DNA from: Waddliaceae bacterium
GTDB taxonomy: Bacteria > Chlamydiota > Chlamydiia > Chlamydiales > SLFE01
DNA: 64,000 nt
Reading direction: 5' to 3'
Assembly (NCBI GenBank): GCA_963783885.1
Contig: CAWAPJ010000029.1
Coordinates: 32,001-96,000, forward strand
Part shown: positions 10,164 through 17,873 of the stretch, piece after piece
How the letters are laid out: each line of letters opens with the position of its first letter
How positions within the stretch are numbered: the first letter of the stretch is position 1
The notes under the pieces: generated by a model
The model's database searches: none
What the model saw: only the letters and a program-made list of their open reading frames with translations
Told to the model about the DNA's origin: nothing
Made by a program: the position numbers and the translations under genes

Positions 10164-11391
10164 AAAAAAAATCTACATCGCCGCTGGGTACAATACCATT
10201 TATTTCGGTCCGGGACGGCCAGAGTTCGATCCCAAAAAGCCGATGCCGGATCTGGAGTCTTACCTGACCGAAACAGCCGAAGGAACGACCAAGCAGGTTC
10301 CTGAGTTGCAGGTAGAAGAAGGAGTTATCGGCAGCTTTATGTCGGCAAGATTTTTGAAACAGGCCAATATCCCCGGATTTCTTCCCTTCATGGTTCCTTC
10401 CTTGAAAGGGAAACCTTGCACCGGAATCGAAGGAGCCTGCGGTACAGGTGGCCGGACAATCGGCGTGGCTGTCCGTTCTGTCCTGTCGGACATGGCAGAC
10501 GTCGTGTTTGCGGCTGCTTTTGAAATCCAAAATACGATGAAAGCCGTCTATGGTGCCGATGTTCTTGCAGGGGCGGCTTATTTCGGCAAAGAGAGGAAGC
10601 AAGGCGCTGCTTACTACTTTCCCGGAATTTTTGCCGAGCGGGCGGGCGCTTACTTTCGCGAATATGGGGAGAAGTATGCGCGGATGGGATTTGCCAAGTG
10701 GTATGAGCAGGCAATCGAAAAAGCGAGGAAAAATCCCAAAGCGCAGGAGCACTTCAATAAGACCGCCAACCTATTCGATAAAGCGATGACCCCTCCCGAC
10801 CCCAAACGTTTTTTGCCCTACCTCAATCAATATGACTGTTCGAAAGTTTCCGACGGCGCGTCGTCGCTTTTGGTGCTCTCCGAAGAGGGACTGAAGAAAT
10901 GCGGCCTCAAAAAAAGCGAGGCAGTCGAACTCATTGCCCTTGGCGAGTCGGAGAGCGACATCACAAAACCTCCCCCCGATCCTACTGTTTTCGACAACAC
11001 CGAAAACGCGGTGAAAAAAGCTCTGAACGCATCAGGACTTGCTTTGGAAGATATCGGAGTTTTGGAAGTGCATGACTGCTTTTCCATCAGCGGTATTCTC
11101 TCACTGGAGGCGGCAGGATTTGTTCAAAAGGGAAAAGCTCCTGAGTTTGTTATGGAGGAGAGGATCAGTGAATCCGGGACGATTCCCATCAATCTTTCGG
11201 GCGGACTTACCGGGTTCGGCCATCCGACAGGGGCCAGCGGAGTCCGGCAGATGGTCGATCTTCTCCATCAGCTGACGAAAAAAGCGGAAAATCCGGCTCA
11301 AAACGAACCTGAAACCGGCATGATGATCAGCATGGGAGGCAATGACAAGACTGTCACTTGCGCAATTGTTAGGACTTGTCTTCATACATGA
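10150..11391 (+). CDS. Thiolase, SCP2-thiolase type (HDCF loop)
   Basis: EGACGTGG, DCSKVSDGA, EVHDCF, GHPTGASG; lacks the C-terminal CxGGG (has SMGG). Confidence 0.85.
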   Translation: MSSFRKKIYIAAGYNTIYFGPGRPEFDPKKPMPDLESYLTETAEGTTKQVPELQVEEGVIGSFMSARFLKQANIPGFLPFMVPSLKGKPCTGIEGACGTGGRTIGVAVRSVLSDMADVVFAAAFEIQNTMKAVYGADVLAGAAYFGKERKQGAAYYFPGIFAERAGAYFREYGEKYARMGFAKWYEQAIEKARKNPKAQEHFNKTANLFDKAMTPPDPKRFLPYLNQYDCSKVSDGASSLLVLSEEGLKKCGLKKSEAVELIALGESESDITKPPPDPTVFDNTENAVKKALNASGLALEDIGVLEVHDCFSISGILSLEAAGFVQKGKAPEFVMEERISESGTIPINLSGGLTGFGHPTGASGVRQMVDLLHQLTKKAENPAQNEPETGMMISMGGNDKTVTCAIVRTCLHT

Positions 11392-14300
11392 ATGAAGTGA
11401 CATACATCAGAGCACAAAAGATGATAGTGCAGAAAAGAGTTTTGGTCAGAATAATGATCAGATTGATCAGCATTTTCATAATAGCCGGTTGACTGTGATA
11501 CCAGTAGATGTTTCTTAATTCAAACGACTTATTGGGCAAATGATTAAGCAGCTGTTTTGAATTGTCCAAAAGCGTTTTATCATAGACCGATTTAAAACGT
11601 TCATCGGGAAATTCAATGAGTTCGTATGACATTGTTTTCATCCAAAGAACCGACCCAAGGATATCCAAAGCGGGAGCCAGCTTTTTTTTGTGATTTCTGA
11701 TATCCCAAATTCCCATAACAAGACTGGAGACGATTTGGCATCTAAGTTCAGCGAGATATTTTTCATCTTCTTTTGCGAGTTCGTCCGGTATGATGGCCCA
11801 TCTGTAGGCAATTTTGCAAAGGTCGGCATTTGAATAATCAGAGCGTTTTATATTGCAGATATCCCGGCAGATAAGATTCAAAAACAGTCTTTTATTGCGA
11901 AGAGATAAGCTCTCGTCAAGAGCAAGCGAAAAAAGCCGGTTCCATCGCTCGGCTTCCTTAATTTGAATTTTCAGAGGCTGGTCTTTGTTTAATCTTAAAG
12001 AGCTCTGTTTGGTCAATAGATTCCAGGATTCGCTGAGTTTTTCTTTTCGAATCAGAATGTCAAAAATCTTTTTCCATATGGAATTTTTTTCAGAAATCGA
12101 CGGAGAATACTTCTTCCATAAGTGCAGAGCCATCATATGGCTTTCTGTTCCCTGTACAAGATCATAAGAGTGGAATCTTCGAATCCAGAGAGAAACTTCC
12201 TTTTCGATGTCGGTTGGAGTGGGTAAGGAAGCTAAAAAGGTATCGATTCTATTTTTAAGGTTAGAGTGAGATTGGCGGCTTATGAGCGTTTCAATTTCTT
12301 TTTTTTGCAGTTGTCTAAGTTCCGGGGAAGCAGGGCTTTCAAGTTTTTCCAGCCATTCAATGACAGATCTCAAAACAGAAAGGTCTTTGTCTTCGGAATG
12401 AAGTCCGATTTGCTTGAGCCGCGGGATGATATCTTCGCCAAGCACTTTTTGACCGGCATTGATTAATCCGAGCGCAGTCTTGACATTAACATCAATCGCA
12501 AACAACCAAAGGTCAGAGTCAAGGGGATGAATGTTAAGTTTACTCAGCCTCATAAGATTTTGTCCGATTTGATTTGGGGAGAGTTTTTTCATGGGAACGC
12601 TAAGATCGGGAAGAAGCTGGTCGATAAGCTTCAGATTCAGCGAGGCGGAGTTTTTTTGAGATTTGGTAATCAGTTGATTGAAACAATTTTTGATCGTTCC
12701 TTTGCTGCTTAAGGGAAGAAAAAGGGCTGCGGCTTCCCAGGCTTTGTTGATGTCATGGGATAATAGGTCAGAAAAAATGATGCTTAGTTCTTTTGCGGCT
12801 TCTTTGCTTTCAGTGCCGACTTTTAGTAAAATATCGGCAGCTATGATTAAATTGTTTGATTCAAGACAGTGCTTTGCGACCATTAGCTGATAATCCGCAG
12901 ACAAATGGTTAGTGAGAATCAAAGGATCAACCTTATCCTTTTCTAAAGGATAAAATAACCGTTTTTTGCCGAGGGATTGGGCTTGAGTTTTCTTCAAGAG
13001 CAGGCTAAGAAGATAGCACTTGACCTCTTCATCGAATTCTTTCGAATCGGCTGCTTCTTTCCATTGCTGATAAGCCTTTTCAACTGAGGTCTCACAATAG
13101 TGGAGAATCAGAATTTGTTGAATCGAGGTGAAAGATAGCCCTCCATTGTCATCTAAAACCTTAAGGAATTTTTTGACGAGTTTTTGAGGGGGTAGATGAT
13201 TGAGAAGCAGCCTTTGCTTGTCTTCTGTTTCGAGGAAAATAAGAGAAGAAGTCAGCGATTCAATGGATTCGAACGGGGAGCCATTGATAATTTTCAAAAA
13301 GAGGCTGATAAAATGTAATATGGGTTTATCGTCTGGTGTTAAGGAGTTGAAAACTTCGATTGGAAAGGATATGTCATGTTTTGTCGCCTTTTTGCCTTTC
13401 GACAAGACATACAGAATAAATTTTAAAAGTATTCCGGACAGAAGGGCGAGTCTAGGTTTGATGTCATCGGCGTCATACTCAGGCCGGAAGATATGAATAA
13501 ATTTCTCGACCGTCGCGGCAGGTTCGTATTTTAACTGGACAACCGCATTTTGACTTTGATCTAAAGAAAGAGCTAAAAAATTTTCACCGTTCTGACAGCT
13601 TGGAAAAACGGGGAGGGCGTCTTTGAGGTTAAAGGCCCTGTTTCCCTCAAGCATCAAAAGAGAGCACATTTTTATTGTTGTGACGAGGTACCCGCATCCA
13701 TAGGAATACTTTTTGATATATTCGGTAACTTCGATAAGAAGTTGGTTTTTGAACTTATTGCTAATAAACTTTGGAGATGTCTGCCAATAGTTAAACTTGT
13801 CTCCCTCTTCAAAATAGTCGTCGATCATGCCGATAATGTTGAGGCAAAAAGCCAGCTTTGATTTTGAAGAATGAAGGTGGGCCTGCCTCTCTGTAAAGCA
13901 GGAAACAAATTGTTTGACTGAGGGTTTCTTTGTTAGAAAGATTTTTACTGTCTTTTTAACAATGCCCGCTTGCGGAGTTGCCCAGCCGCAGGACTGAAAT
14001 TGAACGAGTCTTTTTAATGCTCCATGATTGATGGGCTGGTCGATATAAAAGATTTTGGTGAGTCTGTGGAGAAACCATTCAGGAAATGAGGCCCTCTTTG
14101 CAAGTTTTGGGATTGCGTTTTTCGTTTTGATCCAATCTTTTAATGAAATATAGAGGCTGTCGGTTGTCGTCAGATGAGAAGGCTCGGCACCTTGATACGT
14201 AATAATGTCGAGATCATACGGAGTTCCCTCAAAAGTGTAAACATGGGTTAAAACATTGATCTCATAGGGAGTTTTATTAGGAACCCTTTCATTGGCCAAA

Positions 14301-14749
14301 TCGCAGAGGATTTTGTGAAATACTTGAGATTCAGCAGAAGAAATGATAATCCTAAGATCGATATCGGAAAAATGCAAGGCGATATTATCCACGCAGTTTT
14401 CTAAAAAGAGCTTGCACTTTTCTGGAACAGCCTTTTGAGAGATAATTTTTTTAAACCAGTCTATATCCGCGGGAAGCGAGCTTCCGGCTAGATGGATATC
14501 GTGCTCGGGATATGTTTCCAGATATTTTGTGACAAAATCAATGATGCGCGCTTCGCCGGTTTCTGAAAGCTTAATGGTTGAATTCAGCAGGCATTCAATC
14601 TTTCTGTTGTCAAAAGGGAGGGGCGCAAGGTCTTTGAATGAGGAATCAGGATTGCTCCTTCCAGAGGGGAGGAGGCTGTCGGTTGCTAAAAGTCTTTGCC
14701 GCAGCTTAACAAGAGGGAAGTTAACTAGATTATTCGATAAACCGTCCAT
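11369..14749 (-). CDS. Large hypothetical protein with an N-terminal nucleotidyltransferase-like region and a hydrophobic C-terminus
   Basis: 1126-aa ORF; IHLAGSS...SDIDLRI...YDLDII motifs; C-terminal hydrophobic segment. Confidence 0.6.
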   Translation of the reverse strand: MDGLSNNLVNFPLVKLRQRLLATDSLLPSGRSNPDSSFKDLAPLPFDNRKIECLLNSTIKLSETGEARIIDFVTKYLETYPEHDIHLAGSSLPADIDWFKKIISQKAVPEKCKLFLENCVDNIALHFSDIDLRIIISSAESQVFHKILCDLANERVPNKTPYEINVLTHVYTFEGTPYDLDIITYQGAEPSHLTTTDSLYISLKDWIKTKNAIPKLAKRASFPEWFLHRLTKIFYIDQPINHGALKRLVQFQSCGWATPQAGIVKKTVKIFLTKKPSVKQFVSCFTERQAHLHSSKSKLAFCLNIIGMIDDYFEEGDKFNYWQTSPKFISNKFKNQLLIEVTEYIKKYSYGCGYLVTTIKMCSLLMLEGNRAFNLKDALPVFPSCQNGENFLALSLDQSQNAVVQLKYEPAATVEKFIHIFRPEYDADDIKPRLALLSGILLKFILYVLSKGKKATKHDISFPIEVFNSLTPDDKPILHFISLFLKIINGSPFESIESLTSSLIFLETEDKQRLLLNHLPPQKLVKKFLKVLDDNGGLSFTSIQQILILHYCETSVEKAYQQWKEAADSKEFDEEVKCYLLSLLLKKTQAQSLGKKRLFYPLEKDKVDPLILTNHLSADYQLMVAKHCLESNNLIIAADILLKVGTESKEAAKELSIIFSDLLSHDINKAWEAAALFLPLSSKGTIKNCFNQLITKSQKNSASLNLKLIDQLLPDLSVPMKKLSPNQIGQNLMRLSKLNIHPLDSDLWLFAIDVNVKTALGLINAGQKVLGEDIIPRLKQIGLHSEDKDLSVLRSVIEWLEKLESPASPELRQLQKKEIETLISRQSHSNLKNRIDTFLASLPTPTDIEKEVSLWIRRFHSYDLVQGTESHMMALHLWKKYSPSISEKNSIWKKIFDILIRKEKLSESWNLLTKQSSLRLNKDQPLKIQIKEAERWNRLFSLALDESLSLRNKRLFLNLICRDICNIKRSDYSNADLCKIAYRWAIIPDELAKEDEKYLAELRCQIVSSLVMGIWDIRNHKKKLAPALDILGSVLWMKTMSYELIEFPDERFKSVYDKTLLDNSKQLLNHLPNKSFELRNIYWYHSQPAIMKMLINLIIILTKTLFCTIIFCALMYVTSFMYEDKS

Positions 14750-14785: not shown

Positions 14786-15531
14786 TCAATAATGGTTGCG
14801 CATTTCGCGCATCTTGGCGAAGACCTCAAGGTCAGAAGAATCCCTCATATTCAATGCGTTGCGGAGATCGGGGTCATCGGCTCTCAAAAAAGGGTTTGTC
14901 AGTTTTTCTTCTGCTAGAGTGCTGGGAATTGTGGGAATATTTTTTTCCCTAAGCGAGCGGGCCTGAGCGAGTCTTTCTTGAATTTTTGGATTTTTCGGCT
15001 CGATTGAGGCGGCGAACTCGAGATTTTTAACGGTATATTCATGACCGCAGAGGATTTTTGTGTCGTCCGGCAGTTTGCAGATTTTCAAAAGGGAGTGATG
15101 CATTTGTTCGGGGGTTCCCTCGAAGAGCCTCCCGCAGCCGCCTCCGAACAGGGTATCGCCGGAAAGAAGCCATTTTTGCTCCGGCTCATAATAGATGACG
15201 TGGCTGGACGTGTGTCCGGGGACTTCGATTACGGTAAAATTCAGGGGGCCGAAGGAGATGACCTCTCCCTCTTCGGCGGCCTGAGTGAGCTTGGGAACGC
15301 GGCTGTCCTCGGGGCCGATGACCGGGCAGCCTGTGGCATCGACCAGCTTTTCCACTCCGGCTGTGTGGTCCCAATGATGATGGGTGACAAGAATCGCTTG
15401 AAGTTTCAGGTTTTGTTGTTTTAAGGCGTCAAGAACCGGTTCCGATTCCCGGGATCGACCGCTACGGCCATATTCCCAAAGATCAGCAGATATATGTAAT
15501 TATCGCTTAAAGCCGATAGGATCTTGAGCAT
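14786..15531 (-). pseudogene. gloB: Hydroxyacylglutathione hydrolase (glyoxalase II), frameshifted in this sequence (possibly a sequencing error)
   Basis: MLKILSALSDNYIYLL...VDPG joins ESEPVL...THHHWDHTAG...PGHT...GDTLFGGGCGR...CGHEY if one G is added to GGG at 15450-15448. Confidence 0.85.
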
Positions 15532-15547: not shown

Positions 15548-15580
15548 AAATAACGGCCTTTTGAGAAAAGGCCGTTGTTT
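15548..15580 (-). terminator. Hairpin or intrinsic terminator after the histone-like gene
   Basis: AACGGCCTTTT-ctc-AAAAGGCCGTT 11-bp stem directly after the stop codon; weak U-tract. Confidence 0.65.
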
Positions 15581-15763
15581 TTACATAAAGTCTCTGTCCA
15601 TGACTGTTTTACGTTTATTTTGCTCTGCGTTGAGAATGGCTTTGTCAATTTCTCTCTCGACAATTCTTGTGAGAGCATCGAACACAGACGACGATGTGTT
15701 CATTCCCGACTTATCTTTGATATAAGTTTTCACCTTGCTGGCGACGACTTTAGAATCACTCAT
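15581..15763 (-). CDS. Bacterial histone-fold protein (Bd0055-like)
   Basis: 60 aa; VVASKVKTYIK...MNTS...L...RKTVMDRD includes the histone-fold L2 loop/RD-clamp motif; AAGGGTG upstream and its own 3' hairpin. Confidence 0.85.
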   Translation of the reverse strand: MSDSKVVASKVKTYIKDKSGMNTSSSVFDALTRIVEREIDKAILNAEQNKRKTVMDRDFM

Positions 15764-15882
15764 GATCGCACCCTTTTGTTAAGTAGACTTTTGTCTAATC
15801 CTTTCCCTCGATATAATTAAATCTGCAAAAAGGTGCAACAATCAACGGTAAAAATTTACAAAATATTGGTTGTTAGATATAT

Positions 15883-17873
15883 ATGGAGTTTCCTCTACTT
15901 CGCGACATCGTCGTAATCTTCGCCCTTTCCATTGCGGTGCTGCTCGTCTGCCACCGCTTGAGGATATCTTCTGTCGTGGGATTTATCCTGACCGGAATTT
16001 TAGCAGGCCCCCACGGGTTCGGGCTGATTTCAGCTATCGGGCAGGTGGATATCCTGGCTAAGATCGGGGTGATCCTTCTTCTTTTTACCATCGGGATGGA
16101 ATTTTCACCGAGGCGCATTTTGGCAATGCGGAAGGGATTTTTTATCGGCGGCGCCCTGCAGGTAGGCTTCACTATTTTGGGAGGGTTTGCCGTAGCCAAG
16201 CTCGTGGGCAGGCCTGCTTCCGAATCCTTGTTTCTCGGCTTCCTTCTTTCTTTAAGCAGCACAGCTATTGTTTTGAAGCTGCTCAGCGACAGGGGCGAGG
16301 GCAAAACGCCTCATGGCAATCTCATTTTGGCGATCCTAATTTTTCAGGACGTGATCATCGTGATGATGATGCTTATGATCCCGCTGCTGGCGGGGGAAGG
16401 TGCGCTCCCTTTAAGGGATGCTCCCATTGTCTTAGGGAAAGGGGCGCTGATTATTGGCATTAGCTTTTTTTCGCGATTAAGGTTGTTCCTTCTCTTCTCG
16501 ACCATGTCGCGAGGACGCGCAGCCGCGAACTCTTTTTGCTTACGGTCCTTGCGATTTGCTTTTCGGTGACCTGGAGTACCTCGCTTGCGGGACTGTCAAT
16601 TTCTCTTGGTGCCTTCTTGTCGGGAATGATTCTTTCCGAATCGGAATATCGCCATCAGGCTTTGGGAAACATTCTTCCCTTTCAAGACATTTTCACCAGC
16701 TTTTTCTTTATTTCCATCGGGATGCTTTTGCAGCTTGAGTTTGTCTATCAGAACCTAGTGTTGATCCTGGCGGTTTGTTTCGGTGTTTTGCTTCTTAAGG
16801 GATTTGTTGCCGGCAACACGTCTTTGATTTTAGGCGCTCCATTAAGGACGTCGATCCTTGTGGGGTTTGCTCTGAGCCAGGTTGGAGAATTCGCTTTTGT
16901 TCTGGCCCAGGCGGGAATGAGAACAGGCATGGGAGAGGTCTGGTTTTATCAACTGTTTTTGTCTGTATCTCTGCTGACAATGCTGGCGACTCCCTTTTTA
17001 ATCAAGTCGGCTCCGTTTGCAGCAAACTTTGTCTGCCGTCTCCCCTTGCCGGGGAAGCTGCTCTCCGGAAGGAATATGCGGGAGCTGGAAGAAGAAAAGG
17101 GACTCGCAAATCATGTGGTGATCACCGGATTTGGAACAGTGGGAAAAAACCTTGCCGAGTCCTGCAGAATGGCAAATGTGAATTTCTGTGTTTTAGAGAC
17201 CAACCTCGATTTAATTAGGCAGCAAAGAAAAGAGGGAGTGCCGATCTACTTTGGGGATGCCGGTCATGTTTCAGTTTTGCAGCACGTCAACATAGACAAA
17301 GCTTCGACACTCGCCGTGCTGGTGAACAGTCCCTCGGATGAAAGACGGATCGTTCAAGAGGCAAGAAGGGAAAACAGCGAACTTTATATCGTGGTTAGGA
17401 CCCATTATAGCGAAGAGTGCGAGGTTTTGTTTCAATTAGGGGCCGACGAGGTCGTCATCGATGAGTTCGAGTCATCGGTTCAAGTGGTCAACCGCATCAT
17501 GAGCCGCTACGGAGTGTCCTATTCCGAACGGGACCGCATCATCAACAGGCTTCCCGGAGGCCTAGACGATATGCTTCGGGAACCCCGCAACCCTTTTCTG
17601 AAATTTACCCAGCTTGAACTTGATTTGCCTCATGTGCTTTTGGAGGCCTGGGATGTCAGCCCCGGGGCCCCTCTTTGCGACAAGGCAGTACAGGAGTCGA
17701 ATCTTAGGCCCGAATACGGAATTTCCATTTTAATCATCATCCGGGGCGGGAAAAATATTACAGACATTTCCGGTAAAACCCGCATTTTGGAAGGGGATAA
17801 GCTTGTCGTCTTTGGAGATAAGGGAAAATTAAGGGAAGCGGAAGTTCTTTTTAAGGCGAAAGCCGCTCAATGA
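15883..17873 (+). pseudogene. CPA2/Kef-type cation:proton antiporter with TrkA-N/TrkA-C domains, frameshifted in this sequence (possibly a sequencing error)
   Basis: LLFTIGMEFS, LSSTAIV, FQD, LGAFLSG, SQVGEF, GFGTVG motifs; the two ORFs fuse in frame (SFFFAIKVVP...RELFLLTVLAIC) if T7 at 16465-16471 were T8. Confidence 0.85.

Follow-up and report, generated by a model that had tools for sequence, protein, structure and literature searches.

An HBb/Bd0055-type bacterial histone in a Waddliaceae genome that also carries Hc1 and HU/IHF-family genes

The window analyzed here, a stretch of 64,000 nucleotides from a Waddliaceae genome, carries on its minus strand a short gene encoding a histone of the HBb/Bd0055 family, i.e., an alpha3-truncated "bacterial dimer" histone and as such a true histone-fold protein, and this gene is under strong purifying selection. 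The original prediction had proposed a 60-aa basic ORF of the Bd0055 type with its own ribosome binding site-like sequence and 3' hairpin, and its exact sequence was recovered (Table 1), the span first assigned to it (15548–15790) also taking in the flanking signals. The ORF starts with ATG, with 5 more codons of open frame upstream (65 aa), and its predicted product of 6.8 kDa is basic as described, if modestly so (12 K + R vs. 9 D + E, computed pI 9.45). Its genome (2.16 Mb, 88.9% complete) has one copy of the gene.

Table 1. Coordinates of the histone gene, its flanking signals and its neighbors in the window.
Feature	Position	Strand	Evidence and remarks
HBb/Bd0055-type alpha3-truncated histone CDS (60 aa + stop)	15581..15763	minus	ORF list, phmmer, AlphaFold, Foldseek, dN/dS
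Shine-Dalgarno-like AAGGGTG	15769..15775	minus	Read from sequence; 5 nt before ATG
Promoter-like element: TTGCAC (15838-15833), 17 nt, TATATC (15815-15810)	15810..15838	minus	Alignment of window and four relatives
3' hairpin, 11-bp stem and 3-nt loop	15552..15576	minus	4 nt past stop, before gloB-like gene
GloB-like hydroxyacylglutathione hydrolase, downstream neighbor	14786..15531	minus	Pfam HAGH_C (2e-29) and Lactamase_B
KefB-like Na/H-exchanger with TrkA-N and TrkA-C, divergent upstream neighbor	15883..17873	plus	Pfam

A Pfam search with the window histone returned no match at E ≤ 1 and the NCBIfam model "archaea_histone" scored 19 bits, below its cut-off of 50, so that family membership is based on homologues in the PDB rather than on curated models. 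PF00808 had no match in the whole genome, and matched 46 of 57 aligned homologues weakly (best E = 3.4e-4). Searched against the PDB with phmmer, the window histone was closest to HBb/Bd0055 of Bdellovibrio (8fvx, 8cmp; E = 6e-9, residues 2–59 on 2–59, ungapped), followed by HLp of Leptospira (9qt0, 1.9e-7) and HTkC of Thermococcus (9f2c, 1.8e-3). A profile of the family scored 87 bits against HBb (E = 6e-24), 42 against HLp, 40 against HTkC and 29 against HmvA.

The original prediction was to be given up if no histone fold were predicted; the AlphaFold model (pLDDT 88.8, pTM 0.63) has one, with alpha1 at residues 3–19, L1 at 20–26, a 22-residue alpha2 at 27–48, L2 at 49–55 and a 4-residue alpha3 at 56–59, and its best Foldseek matches were all histones. 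In this comparison, which had been suggested against Bd0055, the top five PDB rows were HBb (TM 0.76–0.79, rmsd 1.3–1.5 Å, identity 43–44%), and then came two HLp chains, two HTkC chains and eukaryotic H2B (TM about 0.6). The window histone carries S9-K10, K12, K16 and R51-K52-T53-V54...D58, i.e., the RKTV motif together with the R51–D58 "RD clamp". Across the 57 homologues, S9, K10, K12, R51, K52, T53, R57 and D58 are invariant, as is RKTV, and K16 is conserved in at least 90%.

Histones of the alpha3-truncated "bacterial dimer" category, which was set by sequence clustering, are described as having an alpha3 of 3–4 residues and an alpha2 shorter than in nucleosomal histones (Schwab 2024, PMC11390915; Hocher 2023, PMC10627809, under the name "bacterial singlets"); in calling alpha2 short we follow these papers' statements on nucleosomal histones. 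Of the features of the class, the histone fold, the 4-residue alpha3, the RKTxxxD and S9-K10 motifs and the clustering with HBb are present in the window histone. Those of nucleosomal histones (a match to PF00808 or PF00125 and an alpha3 of about 10 residues) and of Hc1 (HctA; a match to PF07432) are absent, the protein having no Pfam match and an alpha3 of 4 residues. The Bd0055-type identification is thus borne out, with the VVASKVK, MNTS and RKTVMDRD motifs present, alpha2 short, and phmmer, model and profile in agreement. Compared with the chains of HBb from Bdellovibrio bacteriovorus (8fvx, 8fw7, 8cmp, 9ezz, 9f0e), the window histone is of similar length (60 aa vs. 58–66) and shares the ungapped alignment over 2–59, the fold, the short alpha2, the 4-residue alpha3, S9-K10, RKTV and the RD clamp. 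It differs in overall sequence (about 44% identity), in the replacement of T8 by Ala (the residue that at least 90% of the 57 aligned homologues have at this position) and in its host, an intracellular chlamydia also carrying Hc1.

In the dimer modeling suggested at the outset, a homodimer was predicted with an ipSAE of 0.86 (0.00 for the highest-scoring of three controls), 100% contact agreement in three runs and a partner pLDDT of at least 91; among proteins solved as one-chain pairs, 20 of 30 attained the mark used to call a dimer, against 1 of 23 among those known as single chains. Solved HBb look-alikes may drive this score through memory of their dimers, and we read it as a likeness rather than as independent proof. 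The predicted interface is a handshake, with residue 35 on the partner's 35 and L1 (22–24) on the partner's L2 (53–54). In such a head-to-tail homodimer the alpha2 helices would cross at 34–35, and each L1 would pair with the L2 of the other chain.

The HBb residues with most DNA contacts are reported to be N22, R57, S9, T53, T8, S24, K10, K12, K52 and K16 (Hu 2024, PMC11317129). Because the alignment is ungapped and the numbering identical, these can be read directly in the window histone, which has the same residue at nine of the ten positions and Ala in place of T8. By analogy with HBb, each L1–L2 pair, together with S9, K10, K12 and K16 of alpha1, would contact the DNA backbone at minor grooves, independently of sequence, and HBb–DNA structures and simulations suggest that the dimer would bend DNA in the manner of HU/IHF. 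The window histone may also be an abundant nucleoid-associated protein, as HBb is, probably with a transcription unit of its own that runs from the conserved promoter-like element to the 3' hairpin, and it would act beside the Hc1 and HU homologues, not as a substitute for them. As a whole, this account (a dimer-class HBb-type histone that bends DNA, has its own transcription unit, is abundant and works alongside Hc1 and HU) is in our judgment probable.

How HBb itself binds DNA is disputed, with straight DNA-coating filaments (Hocher 2023) set against bending (Hu 2024) in the account given by Schwab 2024. If the window histone followed the former mode, its dimers would stack end-on into a nucleohistone filament that coats straight DNA and neither bends nor wraps it. 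This would be in keeping with the first Bd0055 co-crystal structure, which suggested filaments (Schwab 2024; Hocher 2023), the window histone being as close to Bd0055 as to any solved structure, but later co-crystals (9ezz, 9f0e), solution data and simulations favored bending by dimers (Schwab 2024; Hu 2024), and we consider straight coating unlikely.

HLp of Leptospira perolatii (9qt0-2) and HTkC of Thermococcus kodakarensis (9f2c) are face-to-face histones, which form tetramers via R49/N53/R55 (PMC12701072). They have the alpha3-truncated fold in common with the window histone (TM 0.74–0.76; 36–48% identity over 52 columns) and were its next-best matches in both sequence and fold, which would speak for an HLp-like, face-to-face histone whose tetramers wrap about 60 bp of DNA. 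N49 and R51 indeed align with the HLp interface residues N53 and R55, but R51 is the universal RD-clamp arginine and Asn45 stands in place of HLp R49, so that the triad as mapped from the phmmer alignment reads N45, N49, R51. The profile score for HLp and HTkC is moreover half that for HBb, and no confident multimer above the dimer is described for the bacterial dimer group (Schwab 2024). On this comparison of sequences, a tetrameric DNA-wrapping mode is unlikely for the window histone, and we give the HLp-like reading as a whole very little credence next to a DNA-bending dimer of the HBb type.

The search of a large protein collection returned 330 homologues of the window histone (E ≤ 1e-3), often named "histone H3/H4" by JGI and, for the chlamydial ones, "hypothetical protein" by NCBI. 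The gene had been described as easily missed, which does not hold for gene callers, as these detect the ORF, and does hold for annotation, given the missing Pfam match, the NCBIfam score below cut-off and the names of its relatives. The closest named homologues come from MAGs titled Waddliaceae bacterium (90% identity) and Chlamydiae bacterium (85 and 75%), and further ones from MAGs titled Parachlamydiales, Simkaniaceae, Simkania sp. and Waddlia sp., the latter two at 59–64% identity to the window histone.

In an obligately intracellular phylum with known host-nucleus proteins, such as NUE (PMC2904774) and Wcw_0377 (PMC6426960), the window histone might also be pictured as an effector that is secreted, reaches the nucleus of the host cell and targets the chromatin there. 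Against this, the protein has no N-terminal extension, residues 3–19 already forming the highly conserved alpha1, and it keeps the residues with which a bacterial nucleoid protein contacts DNA. Proteins 56–68% identical to it also occur in MAGs titled Oligoflexales, Bdellovibrio, Bacteriovoracaceae, Myxococcota and Spirochaetota, groups known as free-living or predatory, and we regard an effector as highly improbable and a protein of the bacterium's own nucleoid as the better reading.

Evolutionarily, the dN/dS of the window histone was 0.032 against L002, a relative of the same genus, and 0.028 and 0.064 against the more distant L003 and L033, respectively, with synonymous sites near saturation in these comparisons; for a fourth relative (L004), synonymous saturation yielded no ratio. 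In the alignment of 57 homologues, 15 columns are invariant, including M1. That the ORF is a chance frame or functionless remnant, as its very short length and the missing Pfam match might suggest, is refuted by these ratios (0.03–0.06), the 330 homologues and the invariant start codon, and is further opposed by contigs from three other public runs (one of them possibly the source sample) in which the ORF occurs without any difference, leaving that reading with a negligible probability.

Of the signals originally ascribed to the gene, the ribosome binding site-like sequence is present, and the 3' hairpin is significant as a fold (−17.8 kcal/mol, z = −5.0; none of 200 shuffles as stable) and was not called by a terminator scan (0 found), because the T-run that trails it is just AUUU. 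At the Shine-Dalgarno-like sequence, an AAAGG core is conserved in all five sequences of the f1-clade alignment, and a GAGG/GGAG-type motif, read by eye, stands at equal distance in most chlamydial homologues. A hairpin of differing sequence occupies the same place in L002 (z = −3.7), L003 (z = −2.0) and L033 (z = −2.2), but not in L004 (z = +0.5). The structure is probably a terminator or an RNA-stabilizing stem, and since it lacks a proper T-run, read-through into gloB is possible.

Upstream, both hexamers of the TTGCAC-N17-TATATC element are invariant in the five sequences while their flanks have diverged, and from its sequence we infer a sigma66/sigma70-type promoter. A scan for consensus promoters found none on the histone strand, and misses this element because TATATC is without the final T. 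Judged by eye against what we take to be the sigma54 and sigma28 consensus sequences, the upstream block fits neither, with no −24 GG and a −12 GC unconserved among relatives for sigma54, and a −35-like part that misfits the sigma28 site. The element lies in a block of about 41 bp (15800–15840, minus strand) that is nearly invariant in the five genomes, the surrounding intergenic DNA having diverged, and which may hold more than a promoter, e.g., an operator for a developmental regulator. Among chlamydial homologues outside the f1 clade the block is absent, save for TTGCAC-N17-TATACA in L010/L039.

The order kefB–histone–gloB is conserved only in the f1 clade (L002, L003/L034, L004/L035, genomes of the same genus or family as the window) and was absent from more than 100 other loci examined; in L033, the histone gene is flanked by pdxH and pgk instead. 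Both neighbors are broken in the window, the gloB-like gene being split over two frames (N-terminal part 15531–15421, C-terminal part from 15355) and the kefB-like gene into overlapping ORFs (15883–16569 and 16536–17873), and each is a single frame in L002. In contigs from other public runs that are otherwise identical, a single additional base follows 15447 (run X4) or 16464 (runs X1 and X3). By our own arithmetic each extra base brings the gene halves into one frame, and the flanking frameshifts most likely reflect assembly errors of one base, or variation between strains, and not pseudogenes. Just downstream of the gloB-like gene lies a 1126-aa ORF (11369–14749, minus strand) with a below-cut-off match to PXA (E = 0.034), and a 27% identical counterpart occupies the same position in L034, of the same family.

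The chlamydial nature of the host, also part of the original prediction, is confirmed by a TLC ATP/ADP translocase in the window (Pfam, E = 2.7e-186), by an Hc1 gene and by the Waddliaceae and Chlamydiae titles of the nearest relatives. The Hc1 gene is the only PF07432 match in the genome (71 bits) and is located on another contig (C8), and there is one HU/IHF-family gene (PF00216, 98 bits). Because both occur in the same genome, the histone is an addition to the classical nucleoid proteins and not a replacement for them. Hc1 (HctA) and Hc2 (HctB) are, like the window histone, small and basic chlamydial nucleoid proteins. Hc1 differs in its unrelated fold, resembling eukaryotic linker histone H1 and not the histone fold, in its PF07432 match and in being a separate gene, in agreement with the initial statement that it is no histone-fold protein. 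The ORF of the Hc1 homologue (L031 1450–2274, plus strand) encodes 274 aa, about twice the size of the 120–140-aa open frames of the small-genome family, and ends in a long C-terminal tail that is rich in Lys, Ala and Thr and built of AKKKTAAKKKPAKRK-type repeats. Among public sequencing runs, the stretch was found in 14 DNA and 0 RNA runs.

To describe the distribution of the family, we used a phylum sample of 400 scored Chlamydiota genomes (one further genome, G005, being unscorable in the histone and Hc1 searches). A histone homologue was detected in 92 of the 400 or, when only genomes with a completeness of at least 90% are counted, in 71 of 334. By family code, it is frequent in f1 (4/4), f8 (30/35), f12 (5/6) and f25 (3/3), intermediate in f6 (19/69) and f9 (9/90), and was not found in f4 (0/29, genomes of 1.0–1.4 Mb), f5 (0/46) and f3 (0/23). 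Searching these 400 genomes for Hc1 gave 339 positives, among them all 29 of f4 and, by hand cross-tabulation, 78 of the 92 with a histone, i.e., 85%, which equals the overall rate: histone presence is independent of Hc1 and not anticorrelated with it.

Several f8 genomes carry a second, divergent histone-fold gene with 38–43% identity to the window histone (E = 1e-6 to 1e-4), including G053:C1:1542782-1542943 and G060:C1:1042188-1042349 as well as genes in G107, G034, G045 and G032; in G053 and G060 the two genes are no more than about 8 kb apart. This second gene may match a Simkania protein of 77 aa whose N-terminal tail is rich in Lys, listed in Table S1 of Hocher 2023.

In a tree of 110 rows and 62 columns, the window histone falls in a seven-row clade (SH-aLRT 98), and relationships between phyla are so poorly resolved that this tree does not distinguish vertical descent from transfer. 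Traced over the tree, the Chlamydiota label has to change 15 times on the best tree and no fewer than 5 times on the starred branches, against a mean of 37 when shuffled.

The novelty implied at first is not supported, as such histones are already listed for Waddlia, Simkania and Chlamydiae MAGs; that the family is known was correctly stated, its chlamydial members having been catalogued within the HBb/Bd0055 family. Hocher 2023 (PMC10627809) surveyed 18,343 bacterial genomes, and the chlamydial rows of its Table S1 are Waddlia chondrophila, Simkania negevensis (a 62-aa protein and the 77-aa paralogue), a Waddliaceae MAG and two "Chlamydiae bacterium" MAGs. Entries 3–32 of the 45 for "chlamydi" in that workbook all belong to the list of searched genomes (Table S4) and not to the hit table, and the searched genomes include Chlamydia species, Parachlamydia, Protochlamydia and Neochlamydia. 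Chlamydiota are named among the phyla with bacterial dimer histones in Schwab 2024 (PMC11390915) and Hu 2024 (PMC11317129), and the alignment of the HLp paper (PMC12701072) includes the Waddlia and Simkania proteins. Judging by the Table S1 rows, the proteins of W. chondrophila (ADI38622.1, 62 aa) and S. negevensis (CCB88880.1, 62 aa) are of the same phylum and family as the window histone and have the same motifs; the window histone differs from them in its separate seven-row clade and in having its own gene neighborhood and upstream element.

A full-text literature search found no experimental study of a chlamydial histone-fold protein, and the "chlamydial histone homologs" of a 2026 mSphere paper (PMC13317200) are, according to that source, HctA and HctB. 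The string "ADI38622" is absent from the Waddlia EB-vs-RB data of Beder & Saluz 2018 (PMC6090853), a study that uses locus tags, the tag "wcw" is absent from the Hocher 2023 supplements, and neither accession searched is present in the tables of Waddlia heparin-binding proteins (PMC6426960). The idea that a true histone may contribute to chlamydial chromatin is reasonable and has already appeared in print, once as an entry in a catalogue and once as an observation on expression, its functional role being a proposal.

The window adds one well-supported member to the family and leaves knowledge of that family unchanged; new here are the wider phyletic count, the independence from Hc1, the transcription-unit anatomy of the clade and the evidence for purifying selection. 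The counts (92/400, independent of Hc1, none in the small-genome family) sharpen a pattern that had been printed from six proteins in five genomes. Bacterial histones were recognized as real chromatin proteins only in 2023–2025 and, to our knowledge, HBb and HLp are the only two to have been characterized experimentally. The chlamydial nucleoid visibly condenses and decondenses in each developmental cycle, which is credited to Hc1 and Hc2, and this makes chlamydiae a natural place to study what a histone does. A role of the window histone in the developmental cycle is one that we purely infer. It is tempting to speculate, as a tentative possibility, that the HBb-type histone is a major constitutive chromatin protein in the lineages that keep it and acts jointly with Hc1 in the switch between replicating and infectious forms. 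If so, its absence from the 29 genomes of f4 (all with Hc1) and from the families counted at 0/46 and 0/23 would mark a re-organization of chlamydial chromatin, and the culturable Waddlia and Simkania would offer the first chance to study a true histone alongside an H1-like protein in a bacterium.
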